From an uncultured Candidatus Saccharibacteria bacterium (GTDB lineage: Bacteria; Patescibacteriota; Minisyncoccia; Phycocordibacterales; PALSA-1337): a stretch of 64,000 bases of DNA. The translations under genes and the position numbers were made by a program. This document shows positions 10,195 to 40,481 of this stretch, one piece after another (position 1 is the first letter of the stretch; each line of letters opens with the position of its first letter). The notes under the pieces are model-generated. The model saw only the letters and a list, made by a program, of their open reading frames with translations, ran no database searches and was not told the origin of the DNA. The DNA lies in contig CAYQFS010000001.1 in the NCBI GenBank assembly GCA_964416985.1, positions 19,413-83,412 on the forward strand, written 5' to 3'.

Positions 10195-11208
10195 TTAAAA
10201 TGTTGTTGATTGTTGTTCAGCCAGCTTTTTATTGAAGAAAAGCGTTACAGAAGCCTGCGCTCCCTGAAGGATCTTATCCTGATTTCGTATATCGAGAGAA
10301 AGAAGAGAGCTTCCTTCGGCATCTTCTTTTGTTCTTAAGGTGATACTCTGATTTGTAGAAATATCTGGTTGCTCGAGGTTGTTGATACTCCATGTGTATG
10401 TCAGGGGGCTTTTTCCTCCGACAGAAGAGAAGAAATATGGGGCGGCGAGAATATTAACCTCATCTTTTATGATGGTAAATCGACTGCTGAGGGCTTTATT
10501 GTAGAAGACTCCATACAAAGGATCTTCTTCATAAAGAAGAATCGAAGGATTTCCCGGCTCAAGATTTATAGAAGCCCTTCCCTGCTGGGCGCCATCCTTT
10601 GTTGTGACAATTGCCTCAATGTCGAAGCTCTTCGGAAGAAATTCACTTATCGAAAGTGTTTGTTTCCCAAAACCAGACTGGTCCTGCACAACCTTATCAT
10701 TTACTGTCCATTTGTAAACAAGAGTCTTTGGGTCAATTTCCCTTCCGTTACTTCCTAAAAAGTGAGGAACAGCACTTATTTTTACGAGATTTTGATATGC
10801 GAAGAGAGACTTTCCTTTAAAAAGGGGTGGAGTGTACCCAGAACTTTCCCAGATGAGATCAATATCTGCTGGTTTAAATGTGATAACCTTTCTTACCTCT
10901 TTTCCTTCTGTTGTCATAATAATTGCCGTGACTGTGACATTTTTACCAATCGCTGGAGCTGTTATGTTGATTGAGGTTAGCCCTGTTCCCTGCCCAGTAT
11001 TTTTCCCATCAACTAACCAAACAATAGAAGCCGCGTTGAGGTTCGTATTGTAGCTCTCAACTTTTACCGTGACACTTTGTCCTGCAGATGGGTAGAGTGG
11101 ATCATTTGAAATTTGAACTCCGTCAATTGAATCAGGAATTTGTGCATGAACAAGGAGACTTGTTCCTAGGAAAAGAAAGCAAAGCATGATTTTCAAGCCA
11201 TTTTTCAT
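10195..11208 (-). CDS. secreted beta-rich protein (Ig-like repeats), T4SS-like operon
   Basis: Probable start at internal Met (MKNGLKIMLCFLFLGTSLLVHA signal peptide); repeated ~90-aa beta-rich segments. Confidence 0.45.
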   Translation of the reverse strand: MKNGLKIMLCFLFLGTSLLVHAQIPDSIDGVQISNDPLYPSAGQSVTVKVESYNTNLNAASIVWLVDGKNTGQGTGLTSINITAPAIGKNVTVTAIIMTTEGKEVRKVITFKPADIDLIWESSGYTPPLFKGKSLFAYQNLVKISAVPHFLGSNGREIDPKTLVYKWTVNDKVVQDQSGFGKQTLSISEFLPKSFDIEAIVTTKDGAQQGRASINLEPGNPSILLYEEDPLYGVFYNKALSSRFTIIKDEVNILAAPYFFSSVGGKSPLTYTWSINNLEQPDISTNQSITLRTKEDAEGSSLLSLDIRNQDKILQGAQASVTLFFNKKLAEQQSTTF

Positions 11209-33645: not shown

Positions 33646-35008
33646 TATGAAGATAAACAAATCACCTTGGATACATCAGCTCGACGAAACAAGGAAGCCC
33701 GTTTCTCTGACTCAGGACATCGATACTGATATCGCAATCGTTGGTGCAGGGATCGCTGGTGTTTCAACGGCTTTTTTCATTCTCAAGTATACAAATAAGA
33801 AAGTTGTTATTATTGAAAAGGGTAAATTGGCTCACGGTGCAACTGGTCATAACGCAGGGCAGGTTGTGGCATGTTTTGAGAGACCTTTGGAGGATATGGT
33901 TAAAGAATTTGGTTTTGAAAAAGTTAAAAAAGCTCTCCACGATCTCCATTCCGGCTGGATATTGATTGATGAGATGTATCATGATGCGCGCCTCAAGATT
34001 CTTTTCTCAAGAATAGATGGAGCTCACGGATTATCAGATCTTCATCAAGTTATTTCTGCTTTGAGCGATCTTGAAATTGAAGTTCTTTCAGGTCTGCACA
34101 AGGATGATTTTCTAATACATGAGAATGCTCCTTTTATCAATTCAATACCGAATAATCTGAAGCATCTCTATAGAACTGTTCCGCACAAGGAAATTTTGGA
34201 AAGGCTTGAGACTGATGATACTGAATTTCAGGCCGTGATGGTTGACCGAAGAGCGTGTATGAACTCAGCTCTCTTCTGTCAGGAGATAGTCTCATATCTC
34301 CTTAAAAAATACGAGACACGTTTTTCAATATACGAAAACACAACCATAAAAAAAGTTATTTTGAGAAAGACTCATGCGCTGCTTGATGCGGATAAACATA
34401 CTATCGGAGCAGAAAGGGTAGTTCTCTGTACGAATGGGTTCGAGAATTTTGATATTTTTAATGAAGACGGTCTTGCTGTTGATAAGAAATTTCATCACTT
34501 AATAGAAGGGAAAGTAGGATACATGTCGGGGTATCTTGAAAATCTAAATAAAAAAGCGGCAGCGATTTCGTATTTTACAAGTGATTTTGATCCATCAAGC
34601 AGTGATCCATACTACTATCTCACCCGAAGACCTCATGAGTTAGGTGACAAAAAACATAATCTTGTCTGTGTCGGTGGCCCAGAACTTGGTATTGATGATA
34701 GGGGAGAGTATTTATACGATTATGACTATCCTGAAAAAATGCACCAAGATATTGATGCTTTCATCAAGAAAGTTTATGACACCGATCCAGAAAAAAAGAT
34801 CGACTACCAATTCACCTGGCATGGCCTCATGGGCTACACACCGAACCGTGTCCGCCTCATTGGGGAAGAGCCTAAGAACCGCGTGCTCCTTTACAACCTT
34901 GGCTGTAATGGCATCGGCATTATTCCTTCTGTTTTTGGCGGAAGGAAGATCTCGAGGATTATAGGAGGGGAGAATATGAAAGAATCCATCTTTGACCCGA
35001 AGAGCTAG
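33646..35008 (+). CDS. FAD-dependent oxidoreductase (DAO family)
   Basis: Rossmann dinucleotide motif DIAIVGAGIAGVSTA; start moved to ATG 33646 (ORF-track TTG 33629 abuts tRNA-Pro). Confidence 0.75.
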
Positions 35009-35051
35009 CAAAAAATATTATTTCTGGTAGTATGGTTCTACAACTGAATAT

Positions 35052-35125
35052 GCGGGACTAGTTTATCGGTAAAATAACAGTTTTCCAAACTGTGGTGGGG
35101 GGTTCGACTCCCCCGTCCCGCACCA
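35052..35125 (+). tRNA. tRNA-Gly (anticodon TCC), CCA encoded
   Basis: Acceptor GCGGGAC/GTCCCGC, anticodon arm ACAGT-TTTCCAA-ACTGT, T-loop TTCGACT. Confidence 0.8.
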
Positions 35126-35673
35126 TGAAAAAGCTTCTTGTCTCACTCGGGATTCTTGTAGGTATCATTGCAGTAGCTTGTCTCGTTTCTTTTCTCACAG
35201 AAAATCGCTCAGTAAAAAACAATATTCCTTCAGTAGTTGAAAATACAAATTCCTTTTCTGATCCTATGAATGGTACATACACCATCGATGGTGAAAAAAT
35301 TACATTGAAAAATGGTGTCGCCGCAAACGCTCGACTTTTTGGAATTCCGACAAGCGGAGATATAAGTCAAGATGGCCTACATGATTCAATTTTCTTTATT
35401 TCGATTAATAATGGGGGATCGGGAACATTTTTCTATGTTGTGGCAGCTTTGCAAAAAGATGGATCTTACATTGGGACAAATGCTATTTTTCTCGGTGATA
35501 GAATTTCTCCTCAGAACATTACTATTTCAGATGGGGAAGCGGCTGTAAATTATGTAATACGAAGAGATATTGATCCGATGACGGCAGCTCCTTCGGTGGG
35601 GGTGACGAAGTATCTCATTATCAAAGACGGTGAATTAGTAGAATATAACAGGATTGAGGAGGATTTGAAATAA
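35125..35673 (+). CDS. membrane-anchored/secreted hypothetical protein
   Basis: Start ATG overlaps last base of tRNA-Gly; MKKLLVSLGILVGIIAVACLVSF signal/TM. Confidence 0.5.
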   Translation: MKKLLVSLGILVGIIAVACLVSFLTENRSVKNNIPSVVENTNSFSDPMNGTYTIDGEKITLKNGVAANARLFGIPTSGDISQDGLHDSIFFISINNGGSGTFFYVVAALQKDGSYIGTNAIFLGDRISPQNITISDGEAAVNYVIRRDIDPMTAAPSVGVTKYLIIKDGELVEYNRIEEDLK

Positions 35674-35676
35674 TAA

Positions 35677-35706
35677 CAAAAAATCACCCTACGGTGACGT
35701 TTTTGT
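35677..35706. terminator. bidirectional rho-independent terminator (A-run, CACCCTAcGGTGA hairpin, T-run)
   Basis: aaaaaatCACCctacGGTGAcgtttttgtt between convergent genes. Confidence 0.6.
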
Positions 35707-35708
35707 TG

Positions 35709-36464
35709 CTAGTCATGATTCCAAATATAATCGAACATTATTCTAAAGGTCTCAGAGATGTATTTACTTTCTATTACGATTGTTAAAATCGTTTCCTTAA
35801 AATTTGTGATAGACACTTTATCCCCATAAATAATTATCTGAGCCGGAATATTTAATTTTTCCGTGGGAACCTTTTTTCTAGTGATGAGATATTTTTCATC
35901 TTCCTCTATCGGGGTTGCGACTGACTGAATATCTGAATGAGGGGCAATAGCCTTTGTCCGGATATTTTGTGCAACTTGTTTTTCTATCTGTTCCTTTATT
36001 AAATGAAGAATTTCCTGGCGACCCTCTTTTATCGGAGAGCTCATTACTAAAATATCCTGACCTATTTCGAGGATTTCACTGTGTACTTTTTCTACACCCC
36101 CTACTCCTTCGTAGAACTGAATATTTGGTTTACCAAACAATGCATTAAATTCTGATGATAAACTACCGAATATCGTATTGAAATCCGAAAAGGCATGATT
36201 GAGACTTTGTTTCTTCACCTCGACCATGTTCTTGATATTTCTAGGGTGTTTAGGCAAGAAAAGGGCTATTTTCCCGATATCCTCCCGTTTTTCTATTAGA
36301 TCTAGGTCTATAAGTTGGTCGATAATCTTATAGGTAAGTGCTCTGCCAATTCCTGTTTTTGATGAAATAGACTTTGCTGAAGAGAAGCCATTGCTTAAAA
36401 GATGGACATATATTTTTGCTTGATCAAGGCTCAGTCCACAGTCTACTAGTATTTTTTCATTCAT
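35709..36464 (-). CDS. TrmB-family HTH transcriptional regulator
   Basis: 251 aa; N-terminal winged HTH LSLDQAKIYVHLLSNGFSSAKSISSKTGIGRALTYKIIDQLIDLDLIEK. Confidence 0.6.
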   Translation of the reverse strand: MNEKILVDCGLSLDQAKIYVHLLSNGFSSAKSISSKTGIGRALTYKIIDQLIDLDLIEKREDIGKIALFLPKHPRNIKNMVEVKKQSLNHAFSDFNTIFGSLSSEFNALFGKPNIQFYEGVGGVEKVHSEILEIGQDILVMSSPIKEGRQEILHLIKEQIEKQVAQNIRTKAIAPHSDIQSVATPIEEDEKYLITRKKVPTEKLNIPAQIIIYGDKVSITNFKETILTIVIESKYISETFRIMFDYIWNHD

Positions 36465-36563
36465 TTTGTTACAAGATTATGACAATAATAGGCTTATTTA
36501 ATAAGGATACTACAAAATTCGTTATATTACAAGGATTTATGTTGGTAGAAAAGGTACAATAGA

Positions 36564-36591
36564 TTGACAAATCTATTTAATATGCTATGAT
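36564..36591 (+). promoter_or_regulatory. consensus sigma70 promoter driving the GC-rich island operon
   Basis: TTGACA (36564-36569), 16-nt spacer, TATGAT (36586-36591); a second TTGACA at 36592. Confidence 0.5.
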
Positions 36592-36656
36592 TGACATCAG
36601 AACGATAGATATGGGATGCATAACGCACCGCTATTGTTGTCAGAAAGACTTGACCT

Positions 36657-36974
36657 ATGAAAATTCTTAACTCGTTTTCTCTCAACATGCTCCAAAACCT
36701 TGACGGTGAGGTCACTCACAAAGTGATCCCCCTTGAAGAGGCCAAGGAATGGGCCCGGGTTGGTGTCCTTGAATCCACCGTTGGTCATGCCGACACAGCT
36801 GCGATCTTTGGATCGCAACTAGACTTGGATGTTCCTGCGGTTCGGAGTACCATCTCTTTATCGAAAGGAGATATGGTACTGGTAGGTCAATACCGCGGAC
36901 CACGGTTGGCTGAGGGGGCGAAGACGCTTCCTGATGGAGCGGGTATTGTCTGGATCTTGCTTACGGTTAAGTAA
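36657..36974 (+). CDS. DUF1874 (STIV B116 / AcrIII-1 / Crn2-like) cyclic tetra-adenylate ring nuclease
   Basis: 105 aa; N-terminal LNSFSLNML, GH motif ESTVGHADTAAIFGSQLD, C-terminal RSTISLSKGDMVLVGQYRGPRLAEGAK (R..I.L..D..V.Q..RL.EG pattern), recalled from DUF1874/AcrIII-1 family members; 55-60% GC vs ~40% host. Confidence 0.65.
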   Translation: MKILNSFSLNMLQNLDGEVTHKVIPLEEAKEWARVGVLESTVGHADTAAIFGSQLDLDVPAVRSTISLSKGDMVLVGQYRGPRLAEGAKTLPDGAGIVWILLTVK

Positions 36975-37029
36975 GTGGGACAGGTCGAAAACCTGAACAA
37001 AAATTTCCTCTGCGCGTTGAGTGAACGCG

Positions 37030-37082
37030 CTGCTTCTCGGAATGTGTATTCCGACTGATGAGTCCGAAAGGACGAAAAGCAG
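37030..37082 (+). ncRNA. hammerhead self-cleaving ribozyme (type III, open helix III)
   Basis: Helix III CUGCUU/AAGCAG; cleavage UC at 37035-37036; helix I UCGGAAU-GUGU-AUUCCGA; core CUGAUGA; helix II GUCC-GAAA-GGAC; core GAAA; every conserved core nucleotide present. Confidence 0.75.
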
Positions 37083-37264
37083 AAGTTCTTTAAATACAAT
37101 TTGGCAGATGAAGTGTTTGAATGCAGATTTAAATATCTATCACACACTCCATCTGCTAAATGAGCTACATAAAAGCGACCTCAACGAGGAGTACAGACGA
37201 TTAAAACAGGGTTTATGAAAATAAACTTTGGTCGTCATGTTGCATCAATAGATGGGATTCAGTT

Positions 37265-37810
37265 ATGACAAATATTGTTGAAAAAATTCTCTCGGTAAGG
37301 GTGATGCTCGTGTCTGGTTTAATCATCGGAGTTCTCTGTGCCTTAACAGGTGCGTGGAATTATGTTGAACCAATGACCGGTATCGCAACCCTTGCGGTCG
37401 CAGGAGCTGTCTGGTTCCAGACCCGTAAGGCAGCCAAGGCTGTCTACGCCGATAACGGAGACGGTAGCTGGGTGGTCGCTCTCGAGGTTGGACGACCGGT
37501 GTCCGAAGCTGTCAAAAAACAGTTCGGGCAACTCGACTGTTTCATCAAGTGTGAGGAAATCATCAAGGGGCACACTCTGGTGCTTCCTGAACACTATGAA
37601 GCTCTGACGAAAGCAGTTTACGCTGCTGTCTGTCAGGGTCAGGGGAAGAATATTCACCTGATCATGTCGGGACCGATTGCCTTGTCAGTTTTGGTTGGAC
37701 AGCTCATCGGTCTTATGCACTTCCAGATCACGGTGTATCAATACACGCCGTCGTCAGGAACGTATGAGGCGATGCCAAGGCCGACTCGAGATTGGCTCGA
37801 GCATCGTTGA
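37265..37810 (+). CDS. 2-TM membrane protein with C-terminal Rossmann-like alpha/beta domain (candidate nucleotide-binding effector)
   Basis: 181 aa; TM1 VMLVSGLIIGVLCALTGAW, TM2 MTGIATLAVAGAVWF; beta-alpha-beta pattern SWVVALEV / NIHLIMSGPIALSVLVGQLIG / HFQITVYQY; GC ~55%. Confidence 0.5.
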   Translation: MTNIVEKILSVRVMLVSGLIIGVLCALTGAWNYVEPMTGIATLAVAGAVWFQTRKAAKAVYADNGDGSWVVALEVGRPVSEAVKKQFGQLDCFIKCEEIIKGHTLVLPEHYEALTKAVYAAVCQGQGKNIHLIMSGPIALSVLVGQLIGLMHFQITVYQYTPSSGTYEAMPRPTRDWLEHR

Positions 37811-38110
37811 AGGTTGCGAAGAGGGAATGGACATCAACATTCCCTCCCTTATCAGATTCAGCATCTTGGTATGATGAATCTGTAGGGGAAATAATGTTCT
37901 TTAGAATTTTATGAGATGGCCAGTTCCTGCTAGTGAGGAATTGGCAAAGGATCTACTCCGCAGCGTGATGAGCGATCATCAGCGTAAGGAGTGGTACAGA
38001 TCCATGTTCAAGGATTAGCCTACCCTTGAACACTTCATTGAGTCCACTGAGTGAAAGATTCTCGTGGGTTCATAGAGTAAGAGGAATTTTGAAAAAATAA
38101 AGGACACTTT

Positions 38111-38383
38111 ATGGAGGCAATGGTTTTAAGCATTCCTGCTAAGGGTGCTGAAATTCAGGAAATCAAAGGGGTTAAGTACCTCGTTGCTAGACTGGATGAG
38201 CAGAAAACCTGCATGGAGTATGCCGCCGAGCTAAGGAAAGGAAAACCTGTTGTGATTCCCGCATCAAAACGCGGACACTTAACAGGAATTCTAAAGAAGG
38301 AATCTATTTTCACCACGCATTCTACTGCCCCTGGTGGACAATGGGTAACCTTCGTTCCTTGCGAAAAGCGCGATTTCAAGTAG
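38111..38383 (+). CDS. hypothetical 90-aa protein, last gene of island
   Basis: ORF with no recognisable motif; GC-rich like neighbours. Confidence 0.35.
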   Translation: MEAMVLSIPAKGAEIQEIKGVKYLVARLDEQKTCMEYAAELRKGKPVVIPASKRGHLTGILKKESIFTTHSTAPGGQWVTFVPCEKRDFK

Positions 38384-38467
38384 TGACTGCCAAAGGATCA
38401 CTCTAACCTTTGAATTAGAAGAGTGTAGTTGTCACCGTACAAAAATGGTGAGATGGCTGCAGGCTAC

Positions 38468-38495
38468 CGTGCGAAAGTGCGGTTTTGTTTTGTCC
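38468..38495 (+). terminator. rho-independent terminator of island operon
   Basis: ccgtgcGAAAgtgcgg hairpin followed by ttttgttttg. Confidence 0.5.
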
Positions 38496-38502
38496 AAAAA
38501 CA

Positions 38503-38530
38503 AAAAACCACCCTAAGGTGGTCTTTTGTT
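38503..38530 (-). terminator. rho-independent terminator of hup (near-identical to 35677-35706 element)
   Basis: aaaaaacCACCctaaGGTGGtcttttgttt; on - strand hairpin followed by TTTTTTGTTTTTGG. Confidence 0.6.
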
Positions 38531-38555
38531 TAATAAGATCTCGATCGAGAGTTTA

Positions 38556-38828
38556 TTATTTTACTGCATCCTTTAAAGCCTTTGCAGCTCTGAATTTTGG
38601 CACCTTCATGGCTGGCACCTGAATAGATGCTCCCGTGCGAGGGTTTCGTGCCTCTCGCGCTGCTCGCTGCTTTACTGAGAAGATACCGAGTCCTGCGATA
38701 GAAACTTCCTCTCCTTTCTTCAAAGAGTTGACGATTCCATTGAGCATTGCCTCAACAGCCTGCTCTGCCTGGACCTTTGTACCTCCCAAAACTGCGTGTA
38801 CTGCGTCTACGATTCCTGCTTTGTTCAT
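38556..38828 (-). CDS. hup: HU-family DNA-binding protein
   Basis: [11 protein letters not shown]...[44 protein letters not shown]; start taken at internal Met (ORF-track start 38903 adds atypical 25-aa extension). Confidence 0.85.
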   Translation of the reverse strand: [90 protein letters not shown]

Positions 38829-38951
38829 AGTTTTTGTAATTACTAATAATACCTCCTTACTCGTTGCGCGAGAGCGCTTTGAGTACCTAACCTCATAATT
38901 CATTATATAACAAGGGTTTTTTGGCGCAATAGGGGTAAAATAAGGACACGA

Positions 38952-40481
38952 TTATCGAGCAAACTCAATAGCACGGGTTTCTCGGATGATTGTAACCTTG
39001 ATTTCTCCCGGATATTTGAGATCTTTCTCTATTTTTAGGGCTATATCTCGAGCCATATTTCGTGCTTCGAGGTCAGTGACGGCCTCTGGAGTGACAAAAA
39101 TACGTATTTCTCTACCCGCCTGGAGGGCATAGGACTTCTCGACTCCGGGGAAGCCATTTGCGATAGCTTCTAGATCCCCAAGGCGTTTTAGGTAGTTCTC
39201 AATACTATCTCGTCGTGCTCCTGGACGTGCTCCTGAGATGGCGTCTGCAGCCTGGACAATACGTGATTCTACTGTCTCGTAAGGATATTCTTCATGATGA
39301 GCCTGCATTGCTTTAACAATCTCCTCACTTGCTCCAAATTTCTGGAGGATTCGTCGACCGATTTCTACATGTGTACCGACGACTTCATGGTCGAGGGCCT
39401 TACCGAGGTCATGGAGAAGGGCACCAGCCTTTGCTACAGCTACATTTGCCTTTATTTCTTCCGCTATCATGCCGGCAATGTGCGACATCTCAATAGAGTG
39501 CTGGAGGACGTTCTGGCCATAGCTTGTTCTAAAATGGAGGCGTCCAAGGATGAGGAGGATTCGAGGATCGAGACCGATCACTCCACACTCATAGGCTGCT
39601 TGCTCACCCTTTTCCTTAATTGTTTTGTTGATGCTTGCCTGAGCCTCTGAAACGACTTTCTCGATCTTTGCAGGCTGAATACGTCCGTCCTTGATGAGTT
39701 CTTCAAGGGCAACTCGGGCAACATGGCGTCGTACTGGATCAAATGAGGAAATGGTGATGTTTCCAGGAGTGTCATCAACAATCACTTCAACCCCGGTCAT
39801 TCTTTCAAATGCCTTGATATTTCGTCCTTCCTTTCCGATTATCTTTCCCTTAATTTCATCATTTGGAATGGTTACTGATGTCGACATGACGTCGGAGGCC
39901 ACAGAGTTTGCGAGGCGCTGGATTGATGTTGCAAGAATTGATTTTGCTTTTTCTTCAAGTATTTCCTCTCCAGACTGTTCGAGTTTCTGAATGCGTACGA
40001 GAATGTCCTGCTCGGAATTTTTCTCAACTGTTTTCAAAAGAGACTGCTTTGCTTCATCCTTGTTCATGCCAGCAATCTTCTCGAGAGCCTGAGCCTTCTC
40101 GGCTTCGAGAGCATCCGCTTTTTCTTTAATGATTTTTATTTCAGCTACCTTTTGCTTTATGAGTTCAACTTCTTTGTCGATATCCGCCTGACGCTTATCG
40201 AGAAAATCCTCCTTTTTGATAAGGCGAGTTTCGATCTGTTGTATTTTTTCTTCTTTTTCCTTGATCTCCTTCTGGCTTTTCTCGAGGAGCATCTTTCCTT
40301 CAACCTCTGCTGCTTCGGTAATTTTCTTCGCTTCTTCCTTTGCTGCGAGACTCATCTCCTTTATCTCAATTTCCATCGATCCCTTTTTTCCAAGAGAGAT
40401 TATGAGGCGGAGATAGTAACCAATTCCGAGTCCCGCAAAACCTGCAAGGGCGAGAAGCAGTGCGACTAATTTTAATGACAT
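38952..40481 (-). CDS. rny: ribonuclease Y
   Basis: 509 aa; N-terminal TM, coiled coil, KH (IGKEGRNIKAFE), HD (HSIEMSHIAG...HDLGK). Confidence 0.9.
   Translation of the reverse strand: MSLKLVALLLALAGFAGLGIGYYLRLIISLGKKGSMEIEIKEMSLAAKEEAKKITEAAEVEGKMLLEKSQKEIKEKEEKIQQIETRLIKKEDFLDKRQADIDKEVELIKQKVAEIKIIKEKADALEAEKAQALEKIAGMNKDEAKQSLLKTVEKNSEQDILVRIQKLEQSGEEILEEKAKSILATSIQRLANSVASDVMSTSVTIPNDEIKGKIIGKEGRNIKAFERMTGVEVIVDDTPGNITISSFDPVRRHVARVALEELIKDGRIQPAKIEKVVSEAQASINKTIKEKGEQAAYECGVIGLDPRILLILGRLHFRTSYGQNVLQHSIEMSHIAGMIAEEIKANVAVAKAGALLHDLGKALDHEVVGTHVEIGRRILQKFGASEEIVKAMQAHHEEYPYETVESRIVQAADAISGARPGARRDSIENYLKRLGDLEAIANGFPGVEKSYALQAGREIRIFVTPEAVTDLEARNMARDIALKIEKDLKYPGEIKVTIIRETRAIEFAR

Follow-up and report, generated by a model that had tools for sequence, protein, structure and literature searches.

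A type III hammerhead ribozyme between a ring-nuclease-family gene and a SAVED-TM gene of a Saccharibacteria genome, and its relatives in Patescibacteria

What does a hammerhead-like RNA motif do between two protein genes of a bacterial chromosome? The question is raised by a stretch of 64,000 nucleotides (nt) from an uncultured Candidatus Saccharibacteria bacterium (GenBank assembly GCA_964416985.1, contig CAYQFS010000001.1, positions 19,413 to 83,412, forward strand), here called the window, in which positions 37030-37082 lie between an open reading frame (ORF) of a ring-nuclease family and an ORF for a membrane protein of the SAVED-TM effector type. The original prediction for this spacer was a canonical hammerhead ribozyme whose self-cleavage would separate the two cistrons, with loops so small that a synthetic or recently mobilised origin was considered. 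The locus is a compact case of a bacterial hammerhead, comprising a promoter-like site, a ring nuclease, the ribozyme and a membrane SAVED effector. We consider it probable that the element is a functional self-cleaving type III hammerhead, which cuts the transcript of the small gene island in which it lies and uncouples the ring-nuclease and SAVED-TM mRNAs.

37030-37082, + strand: type III hammerhead ribozyme (sequence, Rfam alignment, fold, family covariation, N17 rule, loop conservation)

Read directly, the + strand at 37029-37085 is GCUGCUUC / UCGGAAU-GUGU-AUUCCGA-CUGAUGA-GUCC-GAAA-GGAC-GAAA-AGCAGAAG, which matches the sequence quoted in the original prediction; the slash marks the predicted cleavage site. 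Helix I pairs 37037-37043 with 37048-37054 (7 base pairs (bp), loop GUGU), helix II pairs GUCC with GGAC (37062-65 with 37070-73, 4 bp, with G10.1-C11.1 present and GAAA as loop 2), and helix III pairs C37030-U37035 with A37077-G37082 (6 bp, U16.1-A15.1 included). Loops close helices I and II and the ends leave through helix III, which is the type III arrangement. The catalytic core CUGAUGA (37055-37061) and G12 A13 A14 (37074-37076) both stand at invariant columns of the Rfam model RF00008, and the core-adjacent pairs are all present (U37037-A37054, G37062-C37073, A37077-U37035). N17 is C37036 and U16.1 is U37035, in keeping with the rule that N17 is H and not G, and cleavage is predicted between C37036 and U37037. 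For an isolated 66-nt stretch, the minimum free energy (MFE) structure and the centroid structure are both the hammerhead three-way junction, and RF00008 (Hammerhead_3) aligns across its full model (1-54) with 43.5 bits and E=1.1e-8 in a permissive scan of 201 nt. When both strands of the whole window were scanned with all 4227 Rfam families, the hammerhead had E=3.6e-6, and it was the sole ribozyme-like match of the permissive Rfam scan. Direct reading, fold and RF00008 alignment bear out the topology, the helix lengths of 7, 4 and 6 bp, the core bases and the cleavage site that had been proposed. By every sequence and structure criterion examined the element qualifies as a hammerhead, the sole failure being the Rfam score cut-off, to which we return below.

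The element occurs naturally and has many relatives. Three SRA runs, assembled independently of one another, yielded contigs that encode both flanking proteins, and the 311-nt intergenic region with the hammerhead is 100% identical in the Logan assemblies of SRR13287418, SRR13287419 and SRR13287426. We used the exact 23-nt core CTGATGAGTCCGAAAGGACGAAA as a family seed and searched species-representative genomes (one per species), which returned 98 genome DNA stretches (loci are cited below by L numbers); the same core also turned up in 17 viral contigs. Among the 80 titles listed, 65 refer to Patescibacteria (lineages of Saccharibacteria, Parcubacteria/Paceibacteria and others), 6 are unclassified and 9 bear other labels. 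A family covariance model built from alignment A3, which holds 91 distinct 57-nt copies, identified 165 copies within the 98 seeded genome loci. The identical intergenic region in three SRA assemblies and the ~165 relatives in environmental genomes exclude a synthetic origin. Some labels in the census are partly doubtful. L008 (Phycisphaerales) and L042 (Wolfebacteria), which come from the same study, have identical hammerheads and identical flanks, and the hammerhead of L012 (Polynucleobacter) is the same as that of L023 (Saccharimonadales), within flanks that are much alike; such cross-phylum copies are probably due to mis-binning or to shared mobile or phage DNA, and labels from outside the candidate phyla radiation (CPR) call for caution.

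The fold of these relatives is under selection. All parsed copies follow a rigid plan, with a 7-bp helix I capped by a 4-nt loop, the seeded helix II and a helix III of 4-9 bp. In the 91 copies of A3 the inner four pairs of helix III, which played no role in sequence selection, are ~100% paired with 4-6 pair types each, and the covariation score is 0.70, compared with ~0.10 for controls with the partners shifted 1-3 columns; 0 of 500 shuffles reached 0.70. Helix I co-varies at six of its seven pairs, in copies that had been pre-filtered for helix I pairing. The distinct strands number 54 for helix I and 39 for helix III. In unseeded copies helix II co-varies too (GUCC/GGAC, GCUC/GAGC, GUCG/CGAC and GCCG/CGGC, among others), and loop 2 keeps to RAAA, mostly as GAAA with a minority of AAAA. 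N17, a position outside the seed, is most often C (65 copies), followed by U (17) and A (9), with no G at all, and U16.1 is present in 91 of 91. This distribution fits the NUH cleavage-site rule used by Perreault et al. 2011 (PMC3088659) and, at the level of sequence, shows selection for catalysis. At the syntenic locus L025 the ribozyme is 91% identical to that of the window, though the neighbouring DUF1874-like protein is only 29% identical, and it carries a compensatory change from U-A to C-G at 16.2/15.2. A few copies have non-canonical core-adjacent positions (L005:5100-5156, L005:5814-5870, L010:3218-3274 and L005:3919-3975), namely C10.1...A11.1 (CUGAUGA-CGGC-GAAA-GCCA-GAAA), U10.1...U11.1 (CUGAUGA-UUCC-GAAA-GGAU-GAAA) or a core CUGACGA; they may be inactive or tolerated variants.

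The loops point in the same direction. Most natural hammerheads make a loop-loop contact in which, according to Dufour et al. 2009 (PMC2632901), loop 1 is of the form UNmYN, a class that takes in UN3UA hexaloops, where the closing U:A can remain unpaired. Loop 2 is RNnA, most commonly a GNRA or AAAA tetraloop, and the contact is a base pair between the loop 1 5' U and the loop 2 3' A. All 91 copies close loop 1 with U, which has A (60) or G (31) as its partner, and the loop itself is GUGU in 54 and GCGU in 17 copies, giving the effective loop UGYGUR. The window copy fits the motif exactly, with U37043-GUGU-A37048 as a UN3UA hexaloop of the UNmYN class and G37066-AAA as a GNRA tetraloop. Loops 1 and 2 are expected to dock, which would give fast cleavage at cellular Mg2+. 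The idea that the loops are closer to those of engineered minimal hammerheads is wrong because both match the natural contact motif (PMC2632901); the two loops are moreover conserved in the family, and satellite-RNA-sized records show the same design.

What, then, would the ribozyme do at this locus? The surrounding island has the following features.

35709-36464, - strand: gene for a TrmB-like helix-turn-helix regulator, divergent from the island (PF01978, E=2.4e-9)
36564-36591, + strand: promoter-like site TTGACA-16-TATGAT, 11 of 12 matches, with a TG extension (consensus scan, pattern match)
36657-36974, + strand: upstream cistron, a 105-aa DUF1874/STIV-B116-like/Csx16-like ring-nuclease-family protein (PF08960, PADLOC)
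36981-36995, + strand: 3'-untranslated region (3'-UTR) hairpin A, CAGGU-CGAAA-ACCUG (MFE and centroid folds; sequence conserved in L034)
37012-37030, + strand: 3'-UTR hairpin B, GCGCGUU-GAGUG-AACGCGC (folds; abuts helix III and shares C37030 with it)
37085-37091, + strand: GUUCUUU box (k-mer enrichment; part of the ~90%-identical module described below)
37099-37239, + strand: strongly structured stretch of the 180-nt downstream leader, with hairpins at 37099-37161 (63 nt) and ~37193-37239 (folding)
37265-37810, + strand: downstream cistron, a 181-aa protein of the SAVED-TM effector type (PF18145, PADLOC)
38111-38383, + strand: third small ORF, 90 aa (no Pfam or PADLOC match)
38466-38522, + strand: a pair of hairpins resembling terminators, with U-rich tails, at which the island transcript presumably ends (consensus scan)

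The two flanking genes are those that had been predicted. By profile the upstream ORF is assigned to the DUF1874/Csx16 ring-nuclease family (PF08960, 33.5 bits against a cut-off of 26; PADLOC Csx16, E=7.7e-9), and the downstream ORF matches PF18145 (36.4 bits against 26.2) and the PADLOC SAVED4 SAVED_TM profile (E=3.9e-15), with 63 homologues found. Its translation has two N-terminal hydrophobic stretches, at residues ~13-31 and ~39-51, ahead of the SAVED domain. The consensus scan found no promoter-like and no convincing terminator-like site between the two ORFs, and a promoter scan of the + strand over 36664-37866 found nothing. The site at 36564-36591, which faces away from the TrmB-like gene, is presumed to be the start of the island transcript.

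We propose that the island is probably transcribed from this site as a single RNA and that the ribozyme would cut the nascent RNA between C37036 and U37037. The upstream ring-nuclease mRNA would then end in hairpin B followed by a 6-nt tail with a 2',3'-cyclic phosphate, and the downstream SAVED-TM mRNA would open with a 5'-OH, to be followed by the compactly folded ribozyme and a highly structured leader. Folding of 37037-37275, the predicted 3' product, gives -72.1 kcal/mol (z=-6.3), and the leader hairpin 37099-37161 is present in the centroid fold as well; the leader is conserved only from 37190 onward, in L104. The two cistrons would become separate molecules whose stability and translation could be set independently, and the ratio of an "off-switch" ring nuclease to a potentially toxic membrane effector would thereby be fixed. 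Separation of the two cistrons, as first put forward for this spacer, is the most plausible consequence of the predicted cleavage.

The placement of the relatives is that of an element at gene boundaries. Family copies lie in intergenic DNA. In 73 of ~92 cases the closest upstream ORF of at least 100 aa shares the strand of the ribozyme, with its stop codon a median of 84 nt before it, and same-strand downstream ORFs start a median of ~118 nt after it. Several loci are arrays in which genes and hammerheads alternate, with 3 copies in L102 (in the order SAVED-TM, hammerhead, ORF, hammerhead, ORF, hammerhead), 3 in L033 and 7 in L005, and the array of L010 has 12; the window has a single copy by both the family model and the Rfam scans. 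In L025, L033, L078 and L046, too, a hammerhead stands behind a DUF1874 homologue. The motif, its covariation and catalytic-rule conservation across the family, its natural occurrence and its modular placement at gene boundaries are established.

Several points weigh against the proposed separation of the two mRNAs. Cleavage, co-transcription and an effect on mRNA fate (stability, stoichiometry) are what we infer from these features, and promoter and terminators are called only by their match to a consensus. The fold energy of the isolated 66-nt stretch is modest compared with shuffles (z=-1.6). In its 191-nt native context the RNA keeps helices I and II and both 3'-UTR hairpins, and helix III is absent from the MFE and centroid structures; hairpin B competes with helix III for C37030. 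The 43.5 bits of the window copy are below the curated RF00008 gathering score of 48.5. The next gene is on the opposite strand or absent in ~28 of 92 copies, about a quarter, and cistron separation cannot be the role of those copies for that reason. Finally, we scanned 36 metagenome loci encoding relatives of the SAVED-TM protein with the family model. In relatives 88-91% identical at the protein level the ribozyme lies downstream of the SAVED-TM gene, and L104 has none. A fixed partnership of ribozyme and SAVED-TM gene was discarded, as the ribozyme stands at other boundaries or is absent among the 36 loci; because its position around this gene varies, a specific partnership with the present gene pair is not conserved.

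The low Rfam score bears on the most sceptical explanation, namely that the element is a chance match, a decayed inactive relic or a synthetic or contaminant sequence. Besides the score, the shortness of the element, its small loops and the lack of the exact core in any paper of the searchable library would speak for such an origin. Because the score is under the gathering threshold, the hammerhead is missing from a default Rfam scan, and a scan of the window at gathering thresholds reported four tRNAs only. A sub-threshold Infernal score had been named in advance as grounds for rejecting the hammerhead, and such a score was indeed found; as a criterion it is nevertheless invalid. The 48.5-bit cut-off is operational rather than biological and does not discriminate here, because satellite-sized records of like design score 44.2 and 48.6 bits. 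RF00008 scores of family relatives range from 28 to 52 bits, and the family model (R1) gives the window copy 77.6 bits, a value that includes the window copy in the model itself. A chance match or relic is also at odds with the window-wide E value, the perfect core, the identity in three independent assemblies, the conservation in syntenic L025 with its compensatory change, the massive covariation of the family and the existence of natural satellite-type records with the same design and similar Rfam scores. We regard this explanation as very improbable.

The score distribution also affects how the family has been recorded. Because the scores straddle the gathering threshold, most CPR hammerheads are missed by standard Rfam annotation and their abundance is under-recorded. 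No paper with the exact hammerhead core was found in the searchable literature, no work linking hammerheads with Patescibacteria, CPR, Saccharibacteria or Parcubacteria was found in the searchable library, and Weinberg et al. 2017 do not discuss these hammerheads. The family is a large and rarely annotated one of Patescibacteria/CPR and their phages, which seems to divide polycistronic transcripts into RNAs of one gene each, a known kind of element in a new setting. Its abundance in Patescibacteria, an extra 5' hairpin and 3' box, and a recurring neighbourhood of TrmB-like regulators and ring nucleases appear under-described.

The extra elements make the hammerhead part of a portable module of ~90-115 nt, which consists of one or more 3'-UTR hairpins, the hammerhead and the GUUCUUU box. 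In the window the module begins right after the ring-nuclease stop codon and ends ~175 nt before the SAVED-TM gene; the stretch 36978-37091 is ~89-90% identical to L034:1596-1702 and L081:4971-5061. Hairpin B co-varies among the three (GCGCGUU/AACGCGC in the window, ACGCAUU/AAUGCGU in L034, GCCCAUU/AAUGGGC in L081), and most family copies have a hairpin at the corresponding position. The gene ahead of the module differs, being a DUF1874 gene in the window and L025, a Csx3-like one in L081 and a member of an unrelated small family in L034. Helix I (UCGGAAU/AUUCCGA) is identical in seven loci (the window, L034, L081, L025, L092, L057 and L035). Because helix I is free to vary and yet is the same in seven loci with different neighbours, the module spreads as a unit. 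Of the two origins suggested at the outset, the mobilised one therefore gains partial support, as the module is ~90% identical beside unrelated genes in other genomes, and the synthetic one does not stand.

The ~35 nt directly upstream of the hammerheads of L031, L066, L082, L088, L089, L091, L093, L015, L047, L064 and L095 also hold structured elements. Some of them resemble small H-type pseudoknots with an A-rich tail, e.g. AGAGUUUC-GGGAAG-UUCUCUAUAAAAA-CUUCC and CCAGUUCGAGGGUCUGGAUUAACAAAACCC. They are similar to preQ1-I aptamers, but an identification as preQ1-I-like riboswitches was dropped when a permissive Rfam scan of eight loci gave zero such matches.

The position of the module directly behind a gene raises the question of which cleavage product matters. 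The ribozyme might mainly form or stabilise the 3' end of the upstream gene by trimming read-through transcripts, which would leave the upstream mRNA with a protective hairpin and a cyclic phosphate at its end, the fate of the downstream RNA being incidental. We take this as a serious possibility, although a somewhat improbable one. The link to the upstream gene is the tighter of the two, a same-strand ORF ending 30-120 nt before the ribozyme in most copies, while the downstream neighbour stands at a more variable distance or, in the ~28 copies mentioned above, is on the opposite strand or missing. The window, L034 and L081 have a co-varying hairpin immediately 5' of helix III, where most other copies also have a hairpin, the same module occurs behind unrelated genes (DUF1874, Csx3, unknown families), and the type III topology means that nearly the whole ribozyme departs with the 3' fragment. 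On the other hand, in the window, L102, L033 and L005 a same-strand gene follows 50-200 nt on with no predicted promoter between, and because of this both cleavage products are likely functional mRNAs. The GUUCUUU box and the structured leader on the 3' product suggest that selection acts there too. The difference between 3'-end formation and cistron separation is one of emphasis, and both roles are compatible.

Spread of the module as a unit could also mean that it is chiefly a boundary for cassette shuffling or mobility, at which near-identical modules recombine and accessory genes pass between CPR genomes and phages, or that pairs of ribozymes release RNAs that are ligated into circles, with self-cleavage being secondary. 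The identity of the freely variable helix I in seven loci despite their differing flanking genes is what such a role would produce, and modules are ~90% identical where orthologous genes are ~70-75% identical at the DNA level. The SAVED-TM gene is found in different contexts with varying ribozyme positions, the family extends to the 17 viral contigs, and Perreault et al. (PMC3088659) raised circular or spliced products as a possibility. They also looked for such products, without detecting them. Covariation, the N17 rule and loop conservation reveal selection on catalysis beyond sequence identity, the single copy of the window leaves no ribozyme-bounded RNA that could be excised here, and no recombinase is consistently adjacent. 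A primary role in shuffling or circle formation thus seems unlikely to us.

The third candidate role concerns the GUUCUUU box, which follows the core by 4-11 nt in ~40% of copies, often as GUUCUUUGAAA. As a k-mer it is present in 31 of 107 copies and in none of the control windows, and in the form GUUCUUU(GAAA) it shows complementarity to AAAGGAC in loop 2 and helix II. The ribozyme could also be a regulated switch, in which alternative pairings (hairpin B against helix III, the box against AAAGGAC) toggle cleavage upon a signal or protein. C37030 is common to hairpin B and helix III, helix III is lost from the long-context MFE structure, AAAGGAC and GUUCUUU are partners in the MFE structure of the 3' product, ~40% of copies have kept the box, and a divergent TrmB-like regulator accompanies many arrays. 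However, most copies have no box, and where helix II reads GAGC, CGAC, AGAC or ACUC the box shows no covariation with it; we rejected the box as an alternative partner of AAAGGAC for this reason. Rfam scans of the window and eight loci recognised no ligand-binding aptamer, and the folding on which the lost helix III relies ignores the tertiary stabilisation of the core. We consider a switch quite unlikely. The box was also tried as a -35 element (TTGAAA) and given up, as no consistent -10 partner was seen by eye in the examples and the promoter scan was empty.

Cutting between cistrons has a precedent among known hammerheads. Perreault et al. 2011 (PMC3088659) found that clustered bacterial hammerheads flanking single genes cleave ~2-kb polycistronic RNA fragments in vitro, and a set from A. 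tumefaciens also cleaves in vivo (PMC3088659). Like the clustered bacterial and prophage elements of that study, those described here are DNA-encoded, intergenic and on the same strand as their flanking genes; they also occur in several copies around single genes or short blocks of varying identity, here as the arrays of the family. The role proposed for that set was the conversion of long transcripts into single-gene mRNAs, and one tested set flanks the anti-defence gene ardA, where the present family has ring-nuclease-type neighbours. The differences from the set in PMC3088659 are equally clear. The window copy and its family are type III with satellite-like loops, are concentrated in genomes of Patescibacteria/CPR, most of which were not yet available in 2011, carry the extra conserved 5' hairpin and 3' GUUCUUU box, and often lie opposite a TrmB-like regulator and not beside integrases; furthermore, the window copy is a single one in an otherwise housekeeping chromosomal region. 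We place the element by function with the clustered gene-flanking bacterial and prophage hammerheads and by structure with the type III ribozymes of satellite RNAs.

The structural likeness to plant-virus satellite and virusoid ribozymes such as sTRSV(+) and sLTSV(+) (RF00008; PMC2632901) comprises topology, helix II and the class of loop 2. The exact GUCC-GAAA-GGAC core is present in viral records of 322, 366 and 457 nt. The first two have a 7-bp helix I with a GUGU or GCGU loop (UN3UA hexaloop), and the match in the third is cut at the 5' end of the record. The 322-nt record scores 48.6 bits with RF00008 and 72 with the CPR-derived model, and the 366-nt record scores 44.2 and 67. In the 457-nt record (L145, IMG/VR) the strand opposite the hammerhead core bears a hairpin ribozyme (RF00173, 79 bits). 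The combination of a hammerhead with a hairpin ribozyme is a hallmark of nepovirus satellite RNAs. We infer that L145 is a nepovirus-satellite-type RNA filed among viral contigs; the satellite identity of the small records comes from their size and from the hairpin ribozyme of L145, not from annotation. Satellite ribozymes reside in small circular RNA replicons, where they process rolling-circle multimers, whereas that of the window is in chromosomal DNA between protein genes; with the same DNA locus in three assemblies, it falls outside the rolling-circle viroid, satellite and retrozyme classes. In the speculative scheme set out below, the near identity to virusoid hammerheads would point to a shared origin of the ribozymes of viroid-like satellites and those of bacteria and phages. 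The catalytic strand CUGAUGA-GUCC-N4-GGAC-GAAA is also nearly identical to that of the Haseloff-Gerlach minimal hammerhead, an sTRSV-derived design in wide use. Minimal engineered constructs lack a capped helix I and a docking loop, whereas the present elements have a conserved UGUGUA cap, signs of natural selection and an origin in environmental DNA.

A looser parallel is RNA punctuation. Mitochondrial transcripts are punctuated by tRNAs, and bacteria use RNase-dependent intercistronic processing with protective hairpins. By analogy only, a structured boundary element would define mRNA ends here as well, with the flanking hairpins setting product stability. The cut predicted here differs from punctuation by tRNAs or RNases in being autocatalytic, leaving a 5'-OH and a 2',3'-cyclic phosphate with no protein nuclease involved.

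The genes around family copies add to this picture. Homologues of the TrmB-like protein adjoin hammerheads in 13 seeded loci, divergently in 11 (tblastn), and in seven loci, the window counted, the first ribozyme is 520-860 nt from the start of the regulator; the TrmB-like protein of the syntenic L025 is 76% identical to that of the window. This recurrent divergent regulator suggests a conserved island architecture. TrmB-like regulators near hammerhead arrays were noted in L025, L034, L081, L084, L100, L088, L089, L087, L033, L021 and L007. More than 85% of the ORFs that flank family copies have no Pfam match, and the recurrent Pfam families are Csx3, DUF1874, DEAD/ResIII/XPD-type helicases, radical SAM, MoxR ATPase and MazF. 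Genes of cyclic-oligonucleotide signalling and a TrmB-like regulator turn up repeatedly beside the ribozymes, a hint that the expression of accessory cassettes, for defence or counter-defence, involves ribozyme processing in organisms with very small genomes. We speculate, and hold this wider scheme to be rather unlikely as a whole, that Patescibacteria and their phages have distinct islands in which a divergent TrmB-like regulator presides over fast-evolving cassettes (ring nucleases of the DUF1874/Csx16 and Csx3 types, SAVED effectors, helicases, radical-SAM enzymes), each closed by a hairpin-hammerhead-box module that would be both a cutter of transcripts into mRNAs or non-coding RNAs and a joint for cassette exchange, with an origin shared with virusoid hammerheads.

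The 3' end of the island recurs elsewhere too. The 90-aa ORF has a homologue with 58% identity at L034:4388-4645, where the hammerhead array of L034 ends. The next ~100 nt (38385-38486 in the window), with the first terminator-like hairpin among them, match L034:4662-4759 at 80% identity; because ORF and following 100 nt recur together at L034:4388-4759, this end of the island is a conserved unit as well. Two curated orphan RNA motifs were matched within a few hundred bases of hammerheads, both above gathering: DUF805b RNA at L057:5265-5299 (50.8 bits) and DUF3800-IX RNA at L034:4909-4977 (43.1 bits), the latter ~150 nt past the stretch of L034 that is homologous to 38385-38486 of the window.

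The largest array deserves separate mention. In L010:2300-6700, from the Candidatus Parcubacteria metagenome-assembled genome (MAG) JANLIU010000041.1, 12 same-strand hammerheads bound repeated non-coding units of ~78 nt and ~220-250 nt, the longer of which share a conserved, hairpin-rich core of ~90 nt (ACUUAAGU...ACUUAAGGCAGUGCUUUCGAAAGAGAGUGCUG); an ORF for a 592-aa helicase-like protein is beside the array. Rfam has no matches in the spacers. The array looks like a set of small RNAs punctuated by ribozymes.

The genes around the island are housekeeping ones (tRNAs, CCA-adding enzyme, HU, RNase Y, ClpP, trigger factor, DnaA, PBP1A), the only tyrosine recombinase lies 8 kb away among them, and the locus is syntenic with MAGs of Paceibacterota/Paceibacteria, which suggests a patescibacterial origin of the window. 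Direct Pfam annotation found no cyclic-oligonucleotide synthase (Cas10 or CD-NTase) within ±10 kb, and a PADLOC screen of all 53 large ORFs of the window was swamped by UvrD/PcrA look-alikes. The ring-nuclease-type and SAVED-TM genes are thus an "orphan" signalling pair in a housekeeping region. A phage origin of the locus was set aside after a megablast of 35000-40000 against 50,697 phage records gave zero matches. A weak match to RAGATH-25 RNA at 10615-10649 (+ strand; 22.5 bits, gathering score 49, E=0.4) is most likely due to chance. Two ORFs that overlap the ribozyme are artefacts. The one on the + strand (37021-37218) has no Pfam family match, and the antisense one (36887-37147, - strand) has in common with L025:7572-7808 (- strand) only the peptide SSFRTHQSEYTFREA, i.e. 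the ribozyme read backwards, which makes this peptide a trap for gene callers.

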